64,000 nt of DNA from Ruthenibacterium lactatiformans. Its GTDB lineage: Bacteria > Bacillota > Clostridia > Oscillospirales > Ruminococcaceae. Shown here in pieces: positions 22,373 to 35,240 of this stretch. The DNA lies in contig NZ_JXXK01000003.1 in the NCBI RefSeq assembly GCF_000949455.1, positions 70,831 to 134,830 of the forward strand, given 5' to 3'. Made by a program: the position numbers and the translations under genes. Within the stretch, counting starts at the first letter, position 1. Each line of letters starts with the position of its first letter. The notes under the pieces were generated by a model. The model made no database searches. It was not told the DNA's origin and saw only the letters and a list, made by a program, of their open reading frames with translations.

Positions 22373-22410
22373 GTGGTTAGCTAAAGATAACTATGAAAGG
22401 AGCATTGTGT

Positions 22411-23034
22411 ATGTCTTTTTTTCAAAATACTTGTAAGCCCAAAGGGATTGGCGGCAAAATTATGGTTAATATGATGAATACCGGACATTCATCTATGGCT
22501 GAATGGGGATTTACGCATATAGAAATTAGAAATAATTACATATGTCTGGATATTGGGTGTGGCGGTGGAGCAAATGTAAAAAAGCTATTGGCAAAAACTC
22601 CATACGGCAAAGTGACAGGTATTGATTATTCAGAAATTAGTGTAATAAAATCCCAAAAAATCAATAAGGCAGAAATAGAAAATAGGCGTTGCGAAATCTT
22701 GCAAGGTAATGTAATGAAACTTCCTTTCGGAAATGAAACTTTTGATATAATTACTGCGTTTGAAACAATATATTTTTGGCCTGATATTAATGAGGCATTT
22801 AAGCAAGTATATCGAGTTTTGAAAGGCAGCGGAACTTTTATGATTTGCAACGAATCAAATGGCGAAAATTCCAAAGAAGAAAAGTGGACTAAGATTATAC
22901 AAGGAATGAAAATATACAATTCTGGACAAGTCAAAAAATCTTTAGAGGGTGCTGGTTTTACAGACATAAAAATACACAAAAATGAAAAAGGCTGGCTCTG
23001 CGTAGTTTGTAAAAAAGATAAAGATGTAAATTAA
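22411..23034 (+). CDS. class I SAM-dependent methyltransferase (Methyltransf_11/25-like), low GC
   Basis: motif I LDIGCGGGANVKKLL, motif post-I VTGIDYSE, motif II FDIITAFETIYFWPD; start ATG 22411 (MSFFQ...) with RBS AAAGGAG; substrate not inferable. Confidence 0.7.
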   Translation: MSFFQNTCKPKGIGGKIMVNMMNTGHSSMAEWGFTHIEIRNNYICLDIGCGGGANVKKLLAKTPYGKVTGIDYSEISVIKSQKINKAEIENRRCEILQGNVMKLPFGNETFDIITAFETIYFWPDINEAFKQVYRVLKGSGTFMICNESNGENSKEEKWTKIIQGMKIYNSGQVKKSLEGAGFTDIKIHKNEKGWLCVVCKKDKDVN

Positions 23035-23650
23035 CTATTGTTTTCTCAATAGCAAAGACAGCCGGGAAAGCCCTAAAATGGCTTCCCGCCCATTTCAATT
23101 TTGAAAAAAGAAACGCTCCAAAATCAGAAAGAGGGCGGCCAAGTACTTCGGAGGATTGGCCGCCTTGTCCACCCATTCAGCGGGACGGTGGGCGGCGGTC
23201 AAGGCCGGGTGTAAACTCGTTCATTTCAGCCCTGACGCTTGCCCGCTGTCCTGCTACTTTTCTGGGAATGTGGCCACACTTCGGGACACTTTGTCCACAA
23301 GTCGGAGCGTAGGTCGAGGGACAGGGGCTTTCATATACGCCCTGTCTGCTGATGAAACCAGACCTGCGCTTGCGGCTCCACGCCACGCAAGCACAGCCCT
23401 GTTTTCCTGCCGCTTCAAATGCCCTTGCCCTCCCCGGCGGCAACGGCATTTTCACGGCAACGCCGACAGAGCGTATAACACACTACACTTTGCTACGCAA
23501 AGTCGTGTGCCAAAGGGGTACCCTTTGGAAACCCCAAACAACAAAACAGGCTGAATATCTCGCACTTTCCCGGTGCTTGATACTCAGCCTGTATTTGTTG
23601 TCAGCAGCCTCCGTTTCGTGGTCTGCGTGTAGTTCTTTGTAAACTGACCT

Positions 23651-24079
23651 AAATGGAATTGCAAATACCACATTGTGTTTGCGCCGAAATATCGGCGCAA
23701 ACTGTTCTACGGAGAAAATCGAAAAGAGATAGGAGGGATTTTGAGACAGCTCAGTGAATGGAAAGGAGTAAAAATAGTAGAAGCAGAAGTGTGCCCGGAT
23801 CACATCCACATGCTGGTAGAAATCCCACCGAAAATGAGTGTGGCGGGATACATAGGATTTCTCAAGGGGAAAAGCAGTTTGATGATTTTTCAACGACACG
23901 GGAATCTGAAGTACAAATATGGGAATCGATCATTCTGGTGCAGAGGGTACTACGTGGACACCGCAGGAAAGAATACGAAAAAGATCGCGGAATACATTCA
24001 AAATCAGTTGAAAGAAGATCAACTTACAGATCAGATGACGTTAAAGGAATACATGGACCCGCTTGCGGGTAACAAGTAA
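23651..24079 (+). pseudogene. tnpA: IS200-family transposase TnpA body (codons 12-152), lacking its own start because of the upstream insertion
   Basis: KWNCKYHIVFAPKYRRKLFYG...PDHIHMLVEIPPKMSVAGYIGFLKGKSSLMIF...RGYYVDTAGKN: HuH motif and catalytic Tyr of Y1 transposases; an in-frame TGA lies 2 codons upstream of K. Confidence 0.6.
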
Positions 24080-28607: not shown

Positions 28608-28683
28608 CGGGGTGTAGCGCAGTTGGTAGCGCGCCTGCTTTGGGAGCAGGATGCCGGGAGTTCGAGTCTCCCCACTCCGACCA
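28608..28683 (+). tRNA. tRNA-Pro (anticodon TGG)
   Basis: hand-folded cloverleaf: acceptor CGGGGTG/CACTCCG with bacterial-Pro-specific C1:G72, D-arm GCGC/GCGC, anticodon stem CCTGC/GCAGG with loop TTTGGGA, T-arm GGGAG-TTCGAGT-CTCCC, discriminator A, encoded CCA. Confidence 0.85.
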
Positions 28684-28684
28684 A

Positions 28685-28720
28685 AACACCACTAAAATCA
28701 TAGATTTTAGTGGTGTTTTT
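28685..28720 (+). terminator. rho-independent terminator after tRNA-Pro
   Basis: ACACCACTAAAATC-atag-GATTTTAGTGGTGT followed by TTTTTC. Confidence 0.7.
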
Positions 28721-28798
28721 CATAAAAAAGCGCAAAAGCTTTATGGTAAGGTCAAAAAACTTGCGGCGCGCCAAAGCACGATGAAAGGAGACGAACGT

Positions 28799-30040
28799 AT
28801 GGCCTACAGCGAGCTGATCAAAAACTTTGAACGCATTCGGGACTATATGCGCGAATTCTATGTGTACGGTTTTAAAAGCCGCGATGAGTTCACGAAGAAA
28901 AGCGCCCGCTCCTATGATGACGAGCGCCGCCGCGTTGAAAGCTGGCTGGGTGATTATATGCGTTTTCGGCAGACCGCTGACGGCAAAAAGGTCTTTCTCT
29001 CCATCGACAGCCGCATTTCTCATCACAATCCGTTCTACAAGGCATGGAAAGCGAAAAGTTTTACCGATGGGGATATCACGCTTCATTTTCTGATCTTCGA
29101 TGTTTTATCCGGTCCGGATATCGCGCTGCCGCTCAACGGCATCATGGATGAAATTGACCGGCGGCTTTCGTGCTTTGACGAGCCGAAAACATTCGATGCA
29201 TCCACCGTCCGCAAAAAACTGAAGGAATACGCCGAGCAGGGCCTTATCTGTACAGATCGGTCCGCAAAAACATTGCTGTACCGCCGTGCGGCCACGGCTC
29301 AGCCTGCCTGTACAGATGCGCTTGACTTTTTTTCCGAGGTCGCCCCCTGCGGCGTGATCGGTTCTTTTTTGCTGGATAAAGCCGATTCCCATGAGGAACA
29401 CTTTGTGTTCAAGCATCACTATATCACCGGGGCGCTGGACAGTGAGATTTTGTACAGATTGTTTGAGGCGATGCACAGAAAACAGTCCGTCCAAATCGAA
29501 ACCGTCAACCGGCGCAGGGAGCGCACCGCCGCGCAGAAGGTTGTTCCCCTGCGCATTTTTATCAGTGTGCAGAACGGCCGCCAGTATCTGATGGCTTATG
29601 CTCCGCGGAACAAACGGATCGGCTCCATCCGGCTTGATAATATTCTGTCGATCCAGACGGCGGGAAATTGCGAAAGCTACGATACATACCGGCAGAAGCT
29701 TGACCAAATGCAGAAGCATATTTGGGGCGTCAGTACCGAAGGGGGATGCGCGCGGCTGGAGCAGGTGGAGTTTACCGTGCGGTATGATGACGGTGAAGCG
29801 TATATCCACCGCCGTCTGGAACGGGAAAAGCGCTGCGGACAGGTCGAGCGTGTCGACGCTCACACCAGCCGCTTTTCCGCCGACGTCTATGACGCGGGCG
29901 AGCTGGTGCCGTGGATCCGTACCTTTATCTGCCGCATTGTCAGCATTCATTTTTCCAATCAGGAGCTGGCGGCGCAGTTCAAAAGGGACATCGACGCAAT
30001 GGCTCGCTTGTACGGGCTGAACGGAGGCGATGAAGCATGA
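28799..30040 (+). CDS. WYL-domain-containing protein (putative ligand-sensing regulator), island gene 1
   Basis: WYL-like core VVPLRIFISVQNGRQYLMAYAPRNKRIGSIRLDNILSI (xYLxAY...R.FRLDxI pattern); start ATG 28799 with RBS AAAGGAG; lower GC than core genome. Confidence 0.5.
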   Translation: MAYSELIKNFERIRDYMREFYVYGFKSRDEFTKKSARSYDDERRRVESWLGDYMRFRQTADGKKVFLSIDSRISHHNPFYKAWKAKSFTDGDITLHFLIFDVLSGPDIALPLNGIMDEIDRRLSCFDEPKTFDASTVRKKLKEYAEQGLICTDRSAKTLLYRRAATAQPACTDALDFFSEVAPCGVIGSFLLDKADSHEEHFVFKHHYITGALDSEILYRLFEAMHRKQSVQIETVNRRRERTAAQKVVPLRIFISVQNGRQYLMAYAPRNKRIGSIRLDNILSIQTAGNCESYDTYRQKLDQMQKHIWGVSTEGGCARLEQVEFTVRYDDGEAYIHRRLEREKRCGQVERVDAHTSRFSADVYDAGELVPWIRTFICRIVSIHFSNQELAAQFKRDIDAMARLYGLNGGDEA

Positions 30041-30948
30041 TTTTCAGCGAGCTTTACGGCGCTTACTACAACACAGTCGCGGCCGTTCTGCGCAAAGCGG
30101 TTCAGCGCCCGCTCACGAAGGAAGATCTGCGAACGGTTATCGAGCGCTGTGCGTTTTCAGAGAGCGTTTTATCCATCGAACCGGCGCTCACGAGCGAAAA
30201 ATGGCAGCTGCTCCGGCCGGACGGCACAACGCCCCTCCTCCATCCGCCGACCATGCCGCTTACGGTGCTGCAAAAGCGGTGGCTGAAGGCGATTTCTCTT
30301 GACCCGCGCATCCGCCTGTTTGATTTTGACAGTTCCGGCCTTGAGGATGTGCCGCCGCTGTTCACGCCGGACGACATTTACATTTTTGACCGGTATGCGG
30401 ACGGCGACCCATTTGAAGATGAGGTATACATACAAATCTTCCATCGGATACTGGACGCGATCAAAAAGCGGTATCCGCTCAGTATTGATGTAAAAAACCG
30501 CCGGGAGGCCCGCACACATCTGAACGTCATGCCGGAATATCTGGAGTATTCCGAAAAGGACGACAAGTTCCGCCTGGTCGCCTCCGGCTGCCGGTACGGA
30601 AAAACCATCAATCTTGGGCGGATTTTGTCCTGTAAGCCCTTTCGGGGAGAACGGTACGGGCGCCAAAGCATCTGTGCCGCCGCAAACAAACGCGTTGTGA
30701 TCGAGCTGTATGACGGACGCAATGCCCTGGAACGGGTGCTGCTTCACTTTGCGCACTTTGAAAAAGAGGCGCAGCGGCTGGACGAAAAGCACTACCGCGT
30801 CACGATCAACTACCGGCAGGACGACGAGACAGAACTGGTGATTCGGGTGCTTTCTTTCGGCCCGTTTATTAAGGTAACTGAGCCGGAACGCTTTGTGGGA
30901 CTGATCAAAAAACGGCTGGAAATGCAAAAAAGCTGCGGACTCTTTTGA
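30037..30948 (+). CDS. WYL-domain-containing protein with C-terminal WCX-like extension, island gene 2
   Basis: FRLVASGCRYGKTINLGRILSCKPF WYL-like core; C-terminal ...FIKVTEPERFVGLIKKRLE resembles the WYL C-terminal extension; start overlaps upstream stop (ATGA). Confidence 0.5.
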   Translation: MIFSELYGAYYNTVAAVLRKAVQRPLTKEDLRTVIERCAFSESVLSIEPALTSEKWQLLRPDGTTPLLHPPTMPLTVLQKRWLKAISLDPRIRLFDFDSSGLEDVPPLFTPDDIYIFDRYADGDPFEDEVYIQIFHRILDAIKKRYPLSIDVKNRREARTHLNVMPEYLEYSEKDDKFRLVASGCRYGKTINLGRILSCKPFRGERYGRQSICAAANKRVVIELYDGRNALERVLLHFAHFEKEAQRLDEKHYRVTINYRQDDETELVIRVLSFGPFIKVTEPERFVGLIKKRLEMQKSCGLF

Positions 30949-30964
30949 GTTCGCAGCTTTTTTT
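30930..30964 (+). terminator. rho-independent terminator overlapping the stop codon of WYL gene 2
   Basis: AGCTGCGGAC-tcttttga-GTTCGCAGCT followed by TTTTTTT. Confidence 0.55.
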
Positions 30965-31440
30965 CCGTGATAAGGCAGGAAAATTTTAGTATTCTATGGA
31001 TGCAAGATGACCTTTGCGGGTGTTTGAATGTTCTTTCACCGCGGTGCGCGAGGAGGTTCCAAAGCGTATGCCGGTCAGGCTTGCGCGTGGCAGCCGCGAA
31101 AGCGGCGGGGTTCAACTCCCCTTTATATCGCAGGTTCGAATCCTGCCTTACATCCGTCAGGATGTATGCCAGTTGGTTTGGTCGCCGCGGGAAGCGGCAA
31201 GCAGGCGTACCTTCGGGTACGGATGAAAACAGGATTCGTTATCCGGCCAGAAATGCGCAGTGCATCTTTGGATGCAGCAAGCATTGCGGGCAATGCTTAC
31301 CGGGCCCTGTCTGAAAACGGATACCGTGCAAAGGGCCAAACGGCCAGGAAGCAATTCTCCGCCGGTTGGCGCCATGCGCTGAAGGGTTCAGCCGCCGGGC
31401 AGGCATGGATGACGAATCACGAATTTAGACCCGAGGAGGT
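30965..31440 (+). ncRNA. ~480-nt highly structured non-coding leader / candidate ncRNA with two tRNA T-arm-like hairpins
   Basis: no supported ORF; hairpins include GGGG-TTCAACT-CCCC, GCAGG-TTCGAAT-CCTGC (canonical T-arm), GNRA (CCGC-GAAA-GCGG) and UUCG (GTACC-TTCG-GGTAC) tetraloops, AAGCATTGC-ggg-GCAATGCTT, GCTGAA-ggg-TTCAGC; lies immediately upstream of the SPFH-rtcB operon. Confidence 0.35.
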
Positions 31441-31447
31441 TTTTTAT

Positions 31448-32554
31448 ATGAAAAAGGTTATTATCAATGAGAATCAGAAGGGTTTCCTGTTTCATAACGG
31501 ACGGTTTGTAAAGCTTCTGGGCGCAGGAAAGTATCCGTTGTTCGGCGCCCGGGAAATTGAGATCGTCTCTTTGAAGGAGCCTCTCATATCTGCAAAATGC
31601 GAACTGGACACCCTTCTCGCAAACAGCGAGGTCGCAAAACTGACCTCTGTCTGCGAAGTTGCGGACCAGCAGCTGGCGCTTCACTACACAAGCGGAAAAT
31701 TCGACGGAGTGCTCCGCCGCGGCAAATACGCCTTCTGGTCTGTGCTGGAGCGTCACGAGTACCAGCTTGTGGATATCTCCACGCCCGAGGTTGCGGAGGA
31801 TGTGCCGCAGTACATATTCGCAAAGCTTCCCACCACGGTTTATACAAAAGTGGAGGTGGCCCAGTATCAGAAAGCACGGCTGTACTTTGACCAGAAGTTG
31901 ATCCGCATTTTGGACGCCGGCACCTATTACTTCTGGAAAAACAATATCCGGGTAGACGTGAACCTTGTGGACACGCGGCTCACCCGGATGGAGATCACCG
32001 GGCAGGAGATCATGACGCAGGATAAGGTCGGCCTTCGCATCAATTTTGTGTGCAATTACCGCATCACGGATTATGTGAAGATACTCACCGAAATCGACGA
32101 CTATGCCGGGCAAATGCACGTTGCGGCGCAGCTCGCTCTTCGGGACTTTGTAGGGAAGCAGAAGCTGGACGACATTCTGGCGAATAAAGACGAGCTGTCA
32201 AGGTATGCCTTTGAGCGCCTTAAGGCAAAAGAGAACGAGTTCTTCGTGGAAATTATCGACGCGGGCGTGAAGGATATCATTCTTCCCGGCGAGATCCGCG
32301 ACATCATGAATACAGTGCTGATCGCGGAAAAGCGGGCGCAGGCCAACGTCATCACCCGCCGGGAAGAGGTCGCCTCCACCCGCTCGCTGCTCAACACCGC
32401 AAAGCTGATGGAGGAAAACCCGACGCTCTACAGGCTCAAGGAGCTGGAGCACATTGAGCGCATCTGCGAGAATGTGGGCAATATCAACTTAAACGGAAAC
32501 GGAGACGTTCTCTCTCAGCTTATGGGCCTGATGCATCCGGGAACAGCCTCCTGA
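31448..32554 (+). CDS. SPFH/Band-7 (stomatin/prohibitin-like) domain protein without TM anchor, N-terminal domain of unknown function
   Basis: C-terminal half ...IIDAGVKDIILPGEIRDIMNTVLIAEKRAQANVITRREEVASTRSL matches SPFH core; start MKKVIINENQ with RBS GAGGAGG; the ORF track upstream extension (31028-) runs through non-coding structured RNA. Confidence 0.6.
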   Translation: MKKVIINENQKGFLFHNGRFVKLLGAGKYPLFGAREIEIVSLKEPLISAKCELDTLLANSEVAKLTSVCEVADQQLALHYTSGKFDGVLRRGKYAFWSVLERHEYQLVDISTPEVAEDVPQYIFAKLPTTVYTKVEVAQYQKARLYFDQKLIRILDAGTYYFWKNNIRVDVNLVDTRLTRMEITGQEIMTQDKVGLRINFVCNYRITDYVKILTEIDDYAGQMHVAAQLALRDFVGKQKLDDILANKDELSRYAFERLKAKENEFFVEIIDAGVKDIILPGEIRDIMNTVLIAEKRAQANVITRREEVASTRSLLNTAKLMEENPTLYRLKELEHIERICENVGNINLNGNGDVLSQLMGLMHPGTAS

Positions 32555-32616
32555 TATCCGGAGCCGGAGCGGTGAAAGCCGCATGTTCCGGCCCCGTCGG
32601 AAAGGGGATCACCATT

Positions 32617-33819
32617 GTGATCGAAGTAAAGGGAAAATTCAATACCGCGCTGTGCTATACGCCGGCGCTGGACGGAAAAGCAGAGGAGCAGATCCGCCTG
32701 GTCTGCGACGAAGAAGCGTTTCGGGACAGCAAAATCCGCATCATGCCGGACGTTCACGCGGGAAAAGGCTGTACCATCGGAACGACCATGACCATTACGG
32801 ATAAGGTGGTTCCCGGTATGGTGGGTGTGGATATCGGCTGCGGCATGGAAACCGTCAGGATCGCACAACGGGAGATCGATTCTGAAAAGCTGGATGCGCT
32901 GATCCGCAGCGCGATCCCCTGCGGACGGGAAGTGCGCATGGCCTCCCACGAATACTGCTCGTCCATCGACTTGAGCGCGCTTCGCTGCGCGCCTTACGTC
33001 AATCTGGAGCGGGCGAAAAAAAGCATCGGCACGCTGGGCGGCGGCAACCATTTTATCGAGGCGGATCGTTCCGATACGGGCGATATTTATATCGTCGTTC
33101 ATTCCGGCAGCCGCCATCTGGGCGTTGAGGTCGCCGATTACTATCAGGAACAGGGCCGAATGGCATTGTGGGGCGGCGCACGCTACCAGATCGGGCAGCT
33201 CATCGAAACGCTCAAGTCGGAGGGGCGCTTTCAGGAGATCCAGCCCGCAGTAACCGCCCTCAAAAAAGAGCATAAAATCAGCATACCGAAAGACCTGGCC
33301 TATGTGGAGGGCAAGCTTTTCGAGGATTATATCCATGATATGCGCATTGTGCAGCGCTTCGCTGTGTTGAACCGCAAAGCGATGATGGATGTGATCCTTT
33401 CCGGTATGGGCTTTACAAAAGCAGACGAATTCACGACCATTCACAACTATATCGACACGGACGCGATGATCCTGCGCAAAGGCTCGGTTTCTGCCAAGAA
33501 GGGCGAAAAGCTGCTCATTCCCATCAATATGCGGGACGGCAGCCTTATCTGTATCGGAAAAGGAAACCCGGAGTGGAACTGCTCCGCCCCTCATGGGGCC
33601 GGGCGGCTCATGAGCCGGAGAGCGGCGTTTTCCACGCTTTCCATGGAACAGTACCGGGAGGAAATGAAGGGCATTTACTCCACCTGTGTTGTTCCGGATA
33701 CGTTGGATGAATCCCCTATGGCCTATAAGAGCATGGAGGAAATCATTGCGCAGATCGAACCCACGACGCAAATCGCAGAGCGTGTCAAACCTGTTTATAA
33801 CTTTAAGGCGGCAGAATGA
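32617..33819 (+). CDS. rtcB: RtcB-family RNA 3'-phosphate/2',3'-cyclic phosphate ligase
   Basis: RtcB signature motifs MPDVHAGKGCTIG, GVDIGCGM, GGGNHFIE, HNYI, RKGSV, NCSAPHGAGR; GTG start at 32617 (MIEVKGKFNTALCYT, typical RtcB N-terminus) with RBS GGAAAGGGGA. Confidence 0.85.
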   Translation: MIEVKGKFNTALCYTPALDGKAEEQIRLVCDEEAFRDSKIRIMPDVHAGKGCTIGTTMTITDKVVPGMVGVDIGCGMETVRIAQREIDSEKLDALIRSAIPCGREVRMASHEYCSSIDLSALRCAPYVNLERAKKSIGTLGGGNHFIEADRSDTGDIYIVVHSGSRHLGVEVADYYQEQGRMALWGGARYQIGQLIETLKSEGRFQEIQPAVTALKKEHKISIPKDLAYVEGKLFEDYIHDMRIVQRFAVLNRKAMMDVILSGMGFTKADEFTTIHNYIDTDAMILRKGSVSAKKGEKLLIPINMRDGSLICIGKGNPEWNCSAPHGAGRLMSRRAAFSTLSMEQYREEMKGIYSTCVVPDTLDESPMAYKSMEEIIAQIEPTTQIAERVKPVYNFKAAE

Positions 33820-33858
33820 TGAAAACACCTGTTTGTTTGACTTTCCCTGTAAAGACAG

Positions 33859-33902
33859 GCAGCCTGTAAGAAAGCGGTGCCCTGACGGTTCTTACAGGCT
33901 GC
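33859..33902. promoter_or_regulatory. perfect 14-bp inverted repeat separated by 16 bp downstream of rtcB
   Basis: GCAGCCTGTAAGAA-N16-TTCTTACAGGCTGC; no U-tract, so not a canonical terminator. Confidence 0.3.
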
Positions 33903-33926
33903 CCGAACTGTCGGGGAGTGATTTAA

Positions 33927-34169
33927 TTGAAAAGAACGCGGGCTTATTACCGGCGGCAGAGAAACCGGGCCATTGAAAGAAAGCTGGGGATCCTGCGCAG
34001 GCTTGGCGGAGAGGAGTATGTATATGCCTGGACGCGGGGTGCATACGGCCGTCTCGCCAAAGGAAAAATCCACTGTTCCTGCCCCATGTGCCGGGCAAAA
34101 TCCCGTGATGAGCACAGCCATAGGGACAAAAAGGCTTTTTTATCCGCCAAGCAGCAAATGGATGCGTGA
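33927..34169 (+). CDS. small basic Cys/His-containing protein (80 aa), possible zinc-binding nucleic-acid-binding protein
   Basis: TTG start with RBS GGGGAG 7 nt upstream; Arg/Lys-rich, HCSCPMC...HSH cluster; sits between rtcB and the nucleotidyltransferase gene. Confidence 0.35.
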   Translation: MKRTRAYYRRQRNRAIERKLGILRRLGGEEYVYAWTRGAYGRLAKGKIHCSCPMCRAKSRDEHSHRDKKAFLSAKQQMDA

Positions 34170-34196
34170 CACACACGCCGAAAGGAGGAGCACCTT

Positions 34197-34949
34197 ATGA
34201 AAGATACAATACAAAAAGAACTGGCTCAAATTGAACAAACACAAAATGTGCGGATCTTGCTGGCGGTCGAATCCGGCAGCCGGGCATGGGGCTTTGCCTC
34301 TCCGGACAGCGACTATGATGTACGGTTCATCTACGTCCGCCCGAAAGATGCGTATTTGCGGCTTCAAAAACACCGTGATGTGATCGAATTGCCGATCAAC
34401 GACGCGCTGGATATCAACGGGTGGGACCTCACCAAGACGCTGCGGCTTCTGCATAAGTCCAACCCAACGCTGTTTGAATGGGGTGCCTCCCCCATTGTAT
34501 ATTTAGAAACAGATTTTGCGGCACGGTTTAAATCTGTTATGGGGCGATATTTTTCTTCGAAGAGAGGGCTGTATCACTATATCCATATGGCGGCCGGCAA
34601 CTACCGCGAATACATCAAAGGCGATATGATAAAGGCAAAGAAATATTTTTATGTCCTGCGCCCGGTCCTCGCCTGCCGGTGGATCCTTGACAAAGGCTCC
34701 CCGCCGCCCATGCTGTTTTCCGAACTGATGGAGAGCGGGCTTGCACCGGAATTGAAACCGGAAGTCGAGCGTCTGCTCGAACTCAAGGTGAATTCCCCTG
34801 AAATCAGGATGATTCCGCAGATCAGGACGCTCAACGAATATCTCAGTTCCAGCATAGCGGAAATCGAACAAAAAATCGCGCGTCCTCCCAATGAGCGGGA
34901 AATCGGCTGGGAAGAGCTGAACGAACTGTTCCTGTCGCAGCTTATATAG
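34197..34949 (+). CDS. Pol-beta-superfamily nucleotidyltransferase (PF10127-like predicted nucleotidyltransferase)
   Basis: LLAVESGSRAWGFASPDSDYDVRFIYV = GS-x(n)-DxD minimal nucleotidyltransferase motif; RBS AAAGGAGGAG. Confidence 0.65.
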   Translation: MKDTIQKELAQIEQTQNVRILLAVESGSRAWGFASPDSDYDVRFIYVRPKDAYLRLQKHRDVIELPINDALDINGWDLTKTLRLLHKSNPTLFEWGASPIVYLETDFAARFKSVMGRYFSSKRGLYHYIHMAAGNYREYIKGDMIKAKKYFYVLRPVLACRWILDKGSPPPMLFSELMESGLAPELKPEVERLLELKVNSPEIRMIPQIRTLNEYLSSSIAEIEQKIARPPNEREIGWEELNELFLSQLI

Positions 34950-35007
34950 TTTGCAGCAGCGCTTTCTTTGGCCTAAGCCAATTTGTTTTCAATGCGGCGG
35001 GCAAAAC

Positions 35008-35047
35008 ATGTACCGTTATTCCAATTAAAACAGCGGCCGGAGCAAAA
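35008..35047. terminator. bidirectional rho-independent terminator closing the island operon
   Basis: AAACAGCGGCCGGAGC-aaaat-GCTCCGGCCGCTGTTTTT. Confidence 0.65.
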
Positions 35048-35240
35048 TGCTCCGGCCGCTGTTTTTGCAATATCAAGCAGTATTTTCCGTCATCCAACGG
35101 CCTATTCCCGGCCCTCCTGTAATGCTGGCCGTATTCGAGGCCCTGCGGGTTTGCGCCCATGCAGACGGCCATGGCCTTTTTCTTCCTGCTGACGCCGCCC
35201 GGAATTTCAAAGCATTTTTTGCTCCACCGAATGGAGCCGT

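Follow-up and report, generated by a model that had tools for sequence, protein, structure and literature searches.

A conserved SPFH, structured RNA and RtcB cassette of gut Clostridia matches a predicted RNA-repair system

In Ruthenibacterium lactatiformans, two WYL-domain proteins, an SPFH protein, the RNA ligase RtcB, a small basic protein and a nucleotidyltransferase are encoded next to a tRNA-Pro gene, raising the question of whether these genes form one system and what the long intergenic region in their midst contributes to it. We analyzed the locus within a window, i.e., the whole stretch of 64,000 nt of DNA under study. The order is tRNA-Pro, WYL1, WYL2, promoter, ∼410-nt RNA, SPFH, rtcB, small basic protein, and rlaP (Table 1), and all elements listed in a preliminary description of this DNA were found in the window. 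The locus is a real cassette that is widely conserved in gut Clostridia; tRNA-Pro(TGG) is a flanking gene outside its conserved parts. It matches an RNA-repair system that was predicted by comparative genomics in 2016. In that work (Burroughs & Aravind 2016, as cited in bioRxiv 10.1101/312249 and PMC12776372), the combination of SPFH/Band-7 protein, “band-7-associated tRNA” and RtcB was predicted, SPFH plus tRNA-like RNA was proposed as an RtcB cofactor, and RlaP was predicted as an RNA-ligase-associated nucleotidyltransferase. The preliminary description had considered this not to be a textbook system, but the combination had already been predicted there. Possibly new are the size of the RNA and its second domain, a near-invariant motif close to the promoter, a role of the small protein as RlaP partner, and extra beta repeats by which the SPFH protein resembles major vault protein.

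Table 1. Features of the cassette and its borders (window positions)
Feature	Position	Strand	Basis
tRNA-Pro(TGG)	28608-28683	+	ARAGORN; Rfam tRNA 68.9 bits
Perfect 17-bp hairpin, A and T runs at its sides	28683-28719	both	Inverted repeat I3, 100% complementary
WYL1, 413 aa	28799-30040	+	Pfam WYL E 1.5e-5, above cut-off; PADLOC WYL E 1.3e-13 (residues 212-402)
WYL2, 303 aa, HTH-WYL-WCX-type regulator	30037-30948	+	PADLOC WYL 4.3e-8 (residues 125-295)
Inverted repeat/terminator	30926-30963	+	Inverted repeat I6
Candidate operator/activator site	30926-30969		About -55 to -33 of RNA promoter
Near-invariant 20-mer TTCGCAGCTTTTTTTCCGTG	30950-30969	+	Includes right arm of 30926-30963 inverted repeat
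-10-like hexamer TATTCT	30990-30995	+	Invariant columns T42, A43, T47 of alignment A2
Structured RNA, ∼410 nt	31001-31412	+	Fold z = -3.9; covariation
RNA 5' domain	31001-31172	+	Constrained fold; P0 covariation
Helix P0	31002-06/31080-84	+	Covariation; begins right after inferred transcription start
Helix P1	31017-22/31037-41	+	
Helix P2	31043-49/31064-72	+	
5'-domain junction	Closed by GGCA 31089-92 / UGCC 31167-70	+	
Four junction hairpins	31093-31106, 31107-31121, 31130-31146, 31149-31166	+	
T-arm-like hairpin 1, GGGG-UUCAACU-CCCC	31107-31121	+	Predicted, read from sequence; recurs in about 10 relatives
Canonical T-arm, GCAGG-UUCGAAU-CCUGC	31130-31146	+	Motif and compensatory changes
RNA variable middle	31173-31286	+	
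RNA 3' domain	31287-31412	+	Covariance model R1
Soluble SPFH/slipin, 368 aa	31448-32554	+	Band_7 E 3.6e-25
RtcB RNA ligase, 401 aa from GTG 32614	32614-33819	+	Pfam 8.2e-60; PHROG 1075 at 1e-129
Perfect 15-bp hairpin between rtcB and small ORF, without T run	33858-33903	+	Inverted repeat I10
Small basic protein, 80 aa, TTG start	33927-34169	+	96 homologues; alignment A7
RlaP nucleotidyltransferase (PF10127), 250 aa	34197-34949	+	Pfam 1.1e-92; PHROG 14344 at 6.6e-73
Perfect 18-bp bidirectional terminator	35027-35065	both	Inverted repeat I2; ORF map

Searches with the SPFH protein as query yielded at least 579 species-level loci, of which the best 80 were used for locus counts. Among these best 80, the 3' domain of the RNA was found upstream of SPFH in 79, always as a single copy and on the SPFH strand. 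WYL2 or the WYL pair preceded RNA and SPFH in 53 of the 65 assessable loci, and RtcB followed SPFH in about 52 of 69. An RNA-only pattern search of metagenomes recovered 19 loci; SPFH was encoded downstream in 15 of them, and the other 4 ended at a contig edge. These results showed a two-way linkage of RNA and SPFH in hundreds of Clostridia species. The association is conserved rather than fortuitous, bearing out the preliminary description's view of an RNA-repair module that is centred on RtcB and possesses WYL regulators and a structured RNA of its own.

The four proteins encoded downstream of the RNA were largely what had been described. The SPFH/Band-7 protein, comprising three ∼65-aa beta repeats, an alpha/beta domain of the SPFH type and long helices at the C terminus, has no hydrophobic segment (maximum KD19 1.15), in agreement with its reported lack of a transmembrane anchor. 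RtcB is bona fide as claimed: its catalytic motifs MPDVHAGKG, GVDIGCG, GGGNHF, HSGSRHLG, and HGAGR could be aligned with the structure of RtcB from P. horikoshii (PH1602). Since homologues align only from residue 15-16 of the longest ORF (start 32572) onward and the ribosome-binding site AAGGGAGA precedes GTG 32614, rtcB probably starts at the latter position and not at 32572. The Arg/Lys-rich protein (28% K+R) noted for its HCSCPMC motif represents a real family, in which KGKIHCSCxxC is invariant and RxYxRxQRxR is found at the N terminus; the family has no counterpart in Pfam, NCBIfam or PHROG. In a different RtcB cluster (L081-84), a homologue immediately precedes RlaP and overlaps it, and homologues elsewhere adjoin NYN/OST-HTH or HD/Metallophos genes. 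The protein may be a partner of RlaP that binds RNA through a putative zinc knuckle. The minimal nucleotidyltransferase with GS...DxD motif proved to be RlaP, whose homologues from Pseudomonas add 1-2 NMP to damaged RNA 3' ends in biochemical assays (PMC12776372).

Both upstream genes encode WYL+WCX regulators, as indicated by PADLOC WYL matches and the fold matches of WYL2; the preliminary description was right about two tandem WYL proteins and had noted a WCX-like extension in one of them. WYL1, named “WYL domain-containing protein” by NCBI, has a conserved domain at its N terminus, followed by a wHTH-like region, a WYL domain spanning residues 216-286 and a C terminus that resembles WCX; its profile matches the PafB/PafC WYL region (E 0.03) and, weakly, the ArsR/SmtB wHTH (residues 124-186). 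In Pfam, WYL2 gave a sub-threshold WCX match and nothing else. Its AlphaFold (AF2) model (pLDDT 81) matched PafB/PafC, DriD, BrxR and CapW in Foldseek with E values of 1.7e-8 to 4e-4 (PafBC 9fnd, E 1.7e-8). The start of WYL2 overlaps the stop of WYL1 by 4 nt (ATGA), suggesting coupled translation of a PafB/PafC-like pair. Structural matches to the PafBC-RNAP and DriD-ssDNA-RNAP complexes provide a precedent for a WYL activator pair.

A candidate site of action for such a pair lies directly upstream of the RNA. The motif TTCGCAGCTTTTTTTCCGTG, which occurs once in the window, was present exactly in 64 of 80 SPFH loci, including loci without WYL2 and without the left hairpin arm, and is separated from the -10 element by a constant 20 nt in the alignment. 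Within the -10-like hexamer, only positions 1, 2, and 6 (TAnnnT) did not vary among 41 loci; TGnTAAAAT occurs in many relatives. Transcription would start at about 31001, and this conserved promoter region appears to drive an RNA contiguous with the SPFH, RtcB, small protein and RlaP genes, a 35-nt linker joining the RNA to the SPFH ribosome-binding site. The start and 3' end of the RNA, as well as any processing, are placed by conservation.

The hairpin-dense RNA, previously put at ∼480 nt, was confirmed as structured and mapped to ∼410 nt, far larger than a tRNA and without a match in Rfam. RNAalifold and pair counts supported 49 pairs with 93.6% of cells paired, 38 of them with compensatory changes; this level was reached by 0 of 500 shuffles, and slid controls attained 32-51%. 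Hairpin insertions of variable length interrupt the alignment. In the 5' domain, the initial UGCAAG pairs with CUUGC 75 nt downstream, and the junction contains a canonical T-arm with compensatory changes in 4 of 5 helix pairs (e.g., GC 26 / AU 15). Its GGTTCRANTCC motif recurs in about 66 of 78 regions, and it is the only place where the Rfam tRNA model aligns to the RNA (E 5.7). The 3' domain is built of five nested helices that surround a near-invariant single strand, GAAAACGGAUACCG. The covariance model built from it (R1; 125 positions, 30 pairs) scored 94.5 bits in the window and had no matches in unrelated RtcB/RlaP loci.

Position and fold of the RNA might suggest a leader that acts in cis, as a riboswitch-like element or as a sensor of protein or tRNA, and controls SPFH-rtcB transcription or translation by switching between two folds. 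Indeed, the RNA is contiguous with the SPFH ribosome-binding site without an intervening terminator in the window, and some of its single strands, GGAUACCG among them, are highly conserved in the manner of sites that bind a ligand or protein. Moreover, 31147-53 can pair either with the 5' GCGUAUG (31064-70) or with its covariation-supported P5 partner, in a mutually exclusive manner, and the 31147-53/31064-70 helix, when counted together with the T-arm, had 82.6% of cells paired versus 37-53% in slid controls. However, two-sided covariation of this alternative helix was essentially absent (one cell in 1 of 7 pairs), and the RNA has neither a terminator/antiterminator nor a clear SD-sequestering helix, the sole predicted anti-SD pairing involving a T-run that precedes the inferred promoter. 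Nor did the RNA match any T-box or riboswitch family of Rfam. In addition, about 650-700 nt separate the end of the RNA from SPFH in five loci (L019, L051, L053, L054, and L070), with the gap filled by a 205-215-aa ORF in the two that were read (L051 and L054), which argues that the RNA is more than an RBS-proximal leader. We therefore regard a leader function as unlikely.

The tRNA-like module could alternatively be a decoy or damage sensor that is cut by anticodon nucleases, soaking up the toxin or yielding a WYL-sensed fragment, and is resealed by RtcB. Many relatives carry, 5-8 nt upstream of the T-arm, an additional arm with a textbook anticodon loop (Y32-U33-G34-U35-N36-A37-A38), called by ARAGORN as tRNA-Asp(GUC) or tRNA-His(GUG); the loop counts (CUGUCAA 23, CUGUAAA 4, CUGUUAA 3, UUGUGAA 1) are inflated by closely related metagenome loci. 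Colicin E5-type nucleases cleave the set of tRNAs with GUN anticodons. The signal inducing the RtcR-controlled rtcBA operon is tRNA halves (PMC7790460). In contrast, the RNA of the window received no ARAGORN tRNA call and has a second T-arm-like hairpin in place of the anticodon-like arm, the cassette contains no nuclease gene, and the conserved 125-nt 3' domain and the SPFH linkage would be left unexplained. A decoy or sensor thus appears quite improbable.

The preliminary description had suggested a horizontally acquired RNA-repair or anti-ribotoxin/defence module next to a tRNA gene. Read as an anti-phage island acquired at tRNA-Pro, the cassette would be under WYL control in the way of BREX under BrxR and CBASS under CapW. 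The WYL proteins do match BrxR and CapW folds and PADLOC WYL models, RtcB and RlaP are nearest to phage families (PHROG), and the cassette's genomic contexts differ across Clostridia families. A drop in GC content 3' of tRNA-Pro, as described earlier, is real but modest: in 1-kb windows GC was 0.51-0.56 over 28-35 kb versus about 0.58-0.62 on both sides (window mean, 0.585), and GC3 was 0.61-0.70 in the six cassette genes versus 0.71-0.79 in four flanking genes. The proposed terminator-delimited units were likewise recognizable by perfect or near-perfect hairpins, although these are absent from the output of a simple terminator scanner; the first is a predicted bidirectional terminator after tRNA-Pro, and the last closes the cassette against a convergent FAD-oxidoreductase gene. 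However, neither an integrase (window ORF map) nor a direct repeat of the tRNA end or att-like repeat (repeat search) was found, and each of the 25 R. lactatiformans contigs read had the cassette at a constant site, adjoining one and the same FAD-oxidoreductase gene; variation was confined to the region beyond tRNA-Pro, where other elements insert. Adjacency to a tRNA gene is not conserved: just 8 of 52 related loci had a true tRNA gene in the scanned flanks; these genes varied in type and mostly lay several kb from the cassette. Genes for toxins or effectors are missing from the cassette, PADLOC had no matches for SPFH, RtcB, RlaP or the small protein, and no SPFH relatives were present among 2.9 million viral contigs. 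A defence island is thus very unlikely; horizontal acquisition at the tRNA gene is not supported, and a defence role is not indicated. The last alternative, chance neighbours around an unstructured spacer or mis-called coding sequence (ORF callers do run SPFH through the RNA region, as in window ORF 31028-32554 and 638-aa “long SPFH” proteins such as P0002), is refuted by the gene order kept in dozens of species, the strong covariation and variable-length insertions, and the reciprocal covariance-model and SPFH matches, and is hardly credible.

We consider it probable that this chromosomal locus serves the response to RNA damage, as a cassette of the SPFH/Band-7, tRNA-like RNA and RtcB type whose RNA is the RNA subunit of a ribonucleoprotein (RNP). 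The WYL pair would act like PafBC or DriD, binding TTCGCAGCTTTTTTTCCGTG just upstream of the -35 region, and the operon would be turned on once the WYL domains bind a signal of nucleic-acid damage (ssDNA or RNA fragments). A precedent is RtcR-CARF, for which induction of rtcB operons by nucleic-acid fragments (tRNA halves) binding to the sensor domain is described (PMC7790460). Since the known WYL ligands, those of DriD and CapW, are ssDNA, the trigger could be DNA rather than RNA damage. The RNA would not be mainly a leader; it would form an RNP with oligomeric SPFH, by analogy to Y RNA with Ro60. Its T-arm(s), together with the anticodon-like arm in many relatives, would mimic tRNA and thereby position or recruit enzymes that handle tRNA, as well as tRNA-like substrates that are broken. 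Nucleotides lost at 3' ends would be restored by RlaP, probably with the small basic protein as a helper, and RtcB would join 2',3'-cyclic-phosphate or 3'-phosphate ends to 5'-OH ends. 3'-OH ends, as in RlaP products, are not directly sealed by RtcB. About a quarter of the related loci lack an adjacent rtcB, so that the SPFH-RNA core may have a function that is not tied to ligation.

The two WYL genes, the structured RNA, the SPFH gene, rtcB, the 80-aa open reading frame (ORF) and the Pol-beta nucleotidyltransferase gene were all located in the order given in the preliminary description. Five of the cassette proteins were looked up, and each was identical to a protein of R. lactatiformans. The reported GC drop beside tRNA-Pro was real, with a GC content of 0.51 to 0.56 in the cassette compared to ~0.60 in its flanks, and GC3 was lower as well (0.61 to 0.70 versus 0.71 to 0.79 in the flanking genes). 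Simple promoter and terminator scans of the window missed elements that were found by conservation and with a repeat finder.

Features of the cassette and its borders (window positions)
Feature	Position	Strand	Basis or remark
tRNA-Pro(TGG)	28608-28683	+	ARAGORN, Rfam
Perfect hairpin terminator	28683-28719		Repeat finder
WYL1	28799-30040	+	ORF
WYL2	30037-30948	+	ORF overlapping WYL1 by ATGA
Inverted repeat	30926-30963	+	Repeat finder
WYL2-SPFH gap, 499 nt	between 30948 and 31448	+	
SPFH gene	31448-32554	+	
rtcB	ORF from 32572, likely start GTG 32614	+	
Perfect 15-bp hairpin, 16-nt loop, no T run	33858-33903		Between rtcB and 80-aa ORF
80-aa ORF	33927-34169	+	
PF10127 nucleotidyltransferase gene (RlaP)	34197-34949	+	
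Perfect bidirectional terminator	35027-35065		Repeat finder

Pfam profile searches supported the WYL (for WYL1), Band_7, RtcB and RlaP assignments that had been proposed from the sequence. The rtcB product matched PF01139 with 203.6 bits (cut-off, 27; E, 8.2e-60) and PHROG 1075 at 1e-129, and its metal- and GMP-binding motifs MPDVHAGKG, GVDIGCG, GGGNHF, HSGSRHLG and HGAGR, the last containing the guanylylated histidine, aligned to P. horikoshii RtcB (1uc2/4dwr), in line with the bona fide RtcB noted before. The longest rtcB ORF starts at GTG 32572; since homologues align only from residue 15 or 16 and GTG 32614 follows a good ribosome-binding site (AAGGGAGA), the 415-aa RtcB of the annotation probably has 14 residues too many. 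The nucleotidyltransferase gene, which follows rtcB on the + strand after 378 nt, encodes a protein that covered positions 1 to 248 of the 249-position PF10127 (RlaP) profile (E, 1.1e-92), with the previously noted Pol-beta GS...DxD motif contained in GSRAWGFASPDSDYD; a PDB sequence match was not found. Linkage of RlaP to an RNA ligase recurred in five loci fetched from relatives (L009, L012, L015, L029 and L117). The family was named and tied to RNA ligases by Burroughs & Aravind, as related in passages of PMC12776372 and bioRxiv 10.1101/312249. RlaPs from Pseudomonas extend the 3'-OH ends of damaged RNA by one or two NMPs (PMC12776372); this addition is attributable to the Pseudomonas homologues only, and activity of the RlaP in the window is putative. 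The basic, Cys-rich 80-aa ORF represents a genuine family of 96 homologues, in which the KGKIHCSCxxC motif is invariant and the N-terminal helix is basic. One unrelated cluster (DUF2828-DUF7788-RtcB-AAA-x-small-RlaP) has it directly upstream of RlaP, which it overlaps, and elsewhere the family adjoins NYN/OST-HTH or HD/Metallophos genes; these neighbours point to an RNA-related role of the protein.

Searching one genome per species with an SPFH alignment yielded at least 579 relatives, the best 80 of which were examined by scoring their neighbours with tblastn and a covariance model. Among these best 80, WYL2 was present upstream of SPFH in 53 of the 65 loci with enough sequence and RtcB downstream in about 52 of 69, so that the gene neighbourhood is indeed conserved across Clostridia; RlaP was present in 5 loci and the 80-aa ORF in none. 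The WYL2-SPFH gap measured about 440 to 570 nt throughout. Hosts belonged to Oscillospiraceae, Lachnospiraceae, Acutalibacteraceae and other Clostridia, and included the isolates Oscillibacter valericigenes and Robinsoniella peoriensis. Some loci had the order WYL-WYL-RNA-SPFH without rtcB nearby, which indicates that the invariant core consists of the RNA and SPFH, usually together with the WYL pair.

An alignment of 41 of these gaps revealed near-invariant blocks split by hairpins of variable length. Upstream, invariance in a TAnnnT hexamer at 30990-30995 is confined to three positions, as expected of a -10 box, and the transcript therefore probably starts at ~31001. RNAalifold combined with explicit pair counting gave 49 pairs in 10 helices across the 41 sequences, with 93.6% of cells paired and compensatory changes in 38 of the 49 pairs (315 cells). 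None of 500 shuffles reached the observed level of pairing, which fell to 32 to 51% when the partner was slid by 1 to 3 columns. A further helix between UGCAAG (31001-31006) and CUUGC (31080-31084) was perfect in ~33 of the 41 sequences and covaried, e.g., as TGCAG/CTGCA and ACAAG/CTTGT. Covariation thus bears out the hairpin-dense RNA noted before, but with a size of ~410 nt from ~31001 instead of ~480 nt. RNAalifold also joined the T-run at 30957-30962 to the SPFH Shine-Dalgarno sequence; this pairing was dropped because the invariant -10 element lies downstream of the T-run, which is probably outside the transcript.

A covariance model of the 3' domain (31287-31412; 125 positions, 30 pairs) found exactly one match per locus upstream of SPFH, both for the window and for 79 of the 80 loci, and no match in seven loci from other RtcB/RlaP contexts. 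A pattern made from the RNA only recovered 19 metagenome contigs, 15 of which encode SPFH downstream, while the remaining 4 end before SPFH could be read. With Rfam 15, only tRNA-Pro passed the gathering score in the whole window, and permissive E-values added merely a T-arm fragment. The best match to the RNA body (31001-31447) had an E-value of about 1.7 to 6 (12 to 18 bits); lower values, down to 0.13, all fell on the terminator hairpin upstream of the transcript. Gene callers run the SPFH ORF upstream through the RNA (31028-32554 in the window, 508 aa), as in "long SPFH" database entries of 496 to 639 aa (e.g., protein entry P0002/L117:7001-8917), and thereby hide the RNA as a false N-terminal extension.

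Within the RNA, a canonical T-arm (GCAGG-UUCGAAU-CCUGC) is located at 31130-31146, with 4 of its 5 pairs covarying, and a second T-arm-like hairpin is present in R. lactatiformans at 31107-31121. Only these arms are tRNA-like in the window: the Rfam tRNA model aligned positions 46 to 63 only, and ARAGORN at default settings called nothing tRNA-like in the intergenic region. Among relatives, default settings yielded a tRNA call for 4 loci, and relaxing the threshold yielded one for many. In many relatives, an arm that closely precedes the T-arm has a textbook anticodon loop (CUGUCAA and variants, U33-G34-U35-N36), for which ARAGORN calls tRNA-Asp or tRNA-His. This arm is found 5 to 8 nt upstream of the T-arm, e.g., in loci L007, L019, L021, L025, L033, L037, L039, L040, L043, L044, L073 and L096-L111; the lineage of the window is without it. 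Loop counts were 23 for CUGUCAA, 4 for CUGUAAA, 3 each for CUGUUAA and CUGACAA, and 1 for UUGUGAA, so that most are U33-G34-U35-N36 "anticodons" of the Asp/Tyr/Asn/His (GUN, queuosine) family. An acceptor-stem cloverleaf closed by 31064-31070/31147-31153 was also considered. It was compatible with 83% of cells, showed essentially no two-sided covariation and conflicts with the covarying helices P2 and P5; covariation favours the latter, leaving the acceptor stem as at most an alternative conformer. A Band-7-associated RNA had been likened strongly to an authentic tRNA with a cloverleaf (Burroughs & Aravind 2016, as conveyed in part by bioRxiv 10.1101/312249). [quoted passage not shown]

The protein encoded next to the RNA carries an SPFH domain (PF01145) by sequence and by fold. 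No hydrophobic 19-mer was found that could provide a membrane anchor as in stomatin, HflK/C, flotillin or prohibitin (maximum Kyte-Doolittle value, 1.15), in keeping with the earlier description of an SPFH/Band-7 protein without a transmembrane segment, and the protein is predicted to be soluble. In the AlphaFold model (pLDDT 76; C-terminal 70 residues poorly modelled), three five-stranded beta repeats of ~65 aa, detectable in sequence too, are followed by the SPFH domain and long helices. The best-matching solved SPFH proteins are recorded as multi-subunit complexes or cages, of which the vault is presumably the soluble one. As in the vault (MVP, vault RNA and TEP1), the modelled scaffold would be soluble, without a transmembrane segment, and would start with N-terminal five-stranded beta repeats; MVP and the SPFH protein also share an SPFH-like shoulder and a long helix, and in both systems the scaffold is genetically tied to a dedicated structured noncoding RNA. 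In contrast, the SPFH protein has three repeats in 368 aa versus nine in about 860 aa for MVP, and vault RNAs are unrelated to the cassette RNA; a vault-like cage is putative here. An RNA-associated soluble SPFH assembly is a reasonable hypothesis.

We favour a reading of the RNA as a ribonucleoprotein (RNP) partner of SPFH, within an overall model that we consider moderately probable. If it were a cis-regulatory leader of the SPFH gene, the terminator-free RNA-SPFH stretch of the window would be in line with this role, but in L019, L051, L053, L054 and L070 the RNA ends ~650 to 700 nt upstream of SPFH, and in L051 and L054, the two loci read, a 205- to 215-aa ORF fills the gap. The distant RNA ends and the intervening ORF argue against a purely RBS-proximal regulatory role and favour the RNP-partner reading; a cis-regulatory function appears unlikely. 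That the RNA is a tRNA decoy or sensor seems more improbable still. The extra ORF (L054:5366-5983, L051:2802-3449) matched no Pfam family and contains ...IYHCIFSRSYDGY[IV]RQKHIEA...ISYWNEFYR...; RNA-SPFH gaps of similar size occur in L019, L053 and L070.

That two WYL proteins are encoded in tandem was supported by Pfam, which placed WYL1 above the cut-off, and by the PADLOC WYL model, which matched WYL1 at 1.3e-13 and WYL2 at 4.3e-8. For WYL2, Pfam gave only a sub-threshold WCX match, and profile comparisons with WYL1 (hhalign E, 0.021) and with PDB sequences (E, 0.71) were weak and marginal, respectively; its identity was decided by structure prediction. The best PDB matches of its AlphaFold model (pLDDT 81) were PafB/PafC, DriD, BrxR and CapW (E, 1.7e-8 to 4e-4; probability 1.00). 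A WYL domain followed by a WCX domain, the extension suspected previously, was found with Pfam for WYL1, PADLOC for both and the fold of WYL2. Pfam detected no helix-turn-helix (HTH) profile above threshold in either protein; WYL1 residues 124 to 186 weakly matched an ArsR/SmtB winged HTH (E, 0.08 to 0.7), and the helical N terminus of the WYL2 model falls within full-length PafBC/DriD alignments. The PADLOC matches of both proteins and the predicted WYL2 fold suggest a PafB/PafC-like pair of putative HTH-WYL-WCX regulators. Such an architecture would be shared with the WYL-domain transcription activators PafBC (Actinobacteria) and DriD (Caulobacter), which were the top structural matches at a sequence identity of only 12 to 18%, and PafB/PafC likewise are two paralogous chains in tandem. 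WYL1 differs by an extra N-terminal domain of ~120 aa, and the genes under control are apparently those of an RNA-repair operon, whereas the regulon of PafBC/DriD comprises DNA-damage genes.

A candidate binding site just upstream of or overlapping the -35 region is a further feature in common with PafBC/DriD. The right arm of the inverted repeat at the end of WYL2 is part of a 20-mer, TTCGCAGCTTTTTTTCCGTG, which was exact in 64 of the 80 SPFH loci, lies at a constant 20 nt from the -10 box and is retained in loci without WYL2 and without the left arm. It covers about -55 to -33, a location suited to an activator or operator site. The WYL pair is the obvious candidate to bind it, as suggested by the analogous PafBC-RNAP and DriD-RNAP structures at the top of the fold search. 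TTCGCAGC and the left arm lie within 30920-31000, of which 30926-30969 is a candidate operator as judged from conservation.

A more elaborate reading holds that the RNA represents a class of large structured bacterial noncoding RNA not yet catalogued and that a soluble SPFH assembly has it as its own RNA subunit. In the cytoplasm, SPFH and RNA would form a vault-like or Ro/Y-like RNP cage, which a PafBC-like WYL heterodimer would turn on and which would trap broken tRNA-like RNAs on behalf of RlaP and RtcB. Such a cage is conceivable given the MVP-like beta repeats, the SPFH shoulder and the long helix of the SPFH protein, which also lacks a membrane anchor; taken jointly, however, these proposals are tentative and somewhat unlikely to hold in full.

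The cassette shares with the system of Burroughs & Aravind (2016) a Band-7 protein beside RtcB, a tRNA-like noncoding element just upstream of the Band-7 gene, and RlaP as a ligase-associated nucleotidyltransferase; in the window, the Band-7 gene lies beside rtcB with the conserved noncoding element immediately upstream. The association of Band-7, b7a-tRNA and RtcB had been suggested to serve RNA ligation as a cofactor made of a scaffold and an RNA (passages in bioRxiv 10.1101/312249 and PMC12776372), and was described in the relevant passage of bioRxiv 10.1101/312249 as lacking experimental validation. The literature searched contained no later work on b7a-tRNA, SPFH with RtcB or WYL with RtcB, and the locus is thus a member of a predicted, uncharacterised kind. 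The preliminary description called it a non-textbook system, but the SPFH/RtcB/RlaP kind had already been predicted in 2016. Compared to the predicted b7a-tRNA, the cassette RNA is about 410 nt long, comprises 10 or more covarying helices and has a 3' domain of its own of 125 nt; the R. lactatiformans version shows two T-arm-like hairpins but lacks an anticodon arm. We found no description of an RNA of ~410 nt with several domains, of the promoter motif, of a WYL pair as the regulator usually present, of the small Cys-cluster protein partnering RlaP or of the MVP-like repeats, a list that may overstate newness since the 2016 proposal is known to us through citing papers.

The Salmonella rsr-yrlBA-rtcBA operon (Ro60/Rsr, YrlA/YrlB, RtcB and RtcA, controlled by RtcR) likewise co-encodes RtcB with a ring- or cage-forming RNA-binding scaffold and a structured noncoding RNA with a tRNA-like domain. 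Its divergent sensor-regulator answers nucleic-acid fragments, according to sections of bioRxiv 10.1101/312249 and PMC7790460. The scaffold is SPFH here versus Ro60/Rsr in Salmonella, the regulator is the WYL pair versus RtcR, and the cassette RNA is about 3 to 4 times longer than YrlA. Pfam detected no TROVE/Ro60 match among the six cassette proteins, which also included no RtcA or sigma54/CARF RtcR, and Rfam gave no Y_RNA/YrlA match in the window. Unlike the window, a few relatives encode a DUF2828-DUF7788 (vWA-like) protein in place of the WYL pair upstream of the RNA (L050:12-1475, L051:570-2171, L076:426-1889). In L081-L084:1-1422, DUF2828-DUF7788 heads a different cluster of RtcB, AAA, small protein and RlaP without SPFH and without the RNA. 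DUF2828-DUF7788 may be a Ro/TROVE-like alternative scaffold.

The cassette is not a tRNA-targeted island in the R. lactatiformans genome, despite its placement beside tRNA-Pro. No integrase or recombinase ORF was present at the locus, and a repeat search found no repeat of the tRNA end and no att-like repeats. The cassette, flanked in the window by GlyRS and FAD oxidoreductase genes, was present in all 25 conspecific contigs read and always abutted the same FAD-oxidoreductase gene; the variable part was the far side of tRNA-Pro, with GlyRS, flavodoxins or a phage-integrase element. Few of the other loci had any tRNA gene nearby, and no SPFH relatives were found in viral contigs. The patchy distribution across Clostridia and the somewhat AT-richer composition make an ancient transfer plausible. 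Strain variants (L090:18010-19684, L092:14774-16255, L089:17869-19212) include a phage-type integrase element or flavodoxin genes beyond tRNA-Pro in some strains, and a serine-recombinase element that in one strain takes the place of the WYL pair and the RNA and shortens SPFH to 338 aa. Elsewhere in the window, a much sharper low-GC patch (22393-24079; GC, 0.38) encodes, by eye from the translation, a class-I SAM methyltransferase-like protein (22393-23034) and an adjoining IS200/IS605-type TnpA-like ORF (23675-24079). As a candidate for recent horizontal acquisition, this patch ranks above the cassette.

[quoted passage not shown] It provides a complete example in a culturable human-gut species, with a promoter motif, a WYL pair, a covariation-backed RNA fold and a predicted soluble SPFH protein as tractable handles, and it corrects the annotation of an RNA that gene callers wrongly add to the N terminus of SPFH. 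Should the SPFH-RNA particle exist, RNA repair in bacteria would be linked to the eukaryotic vault and Ro RNPs, which are themselves unexplained.
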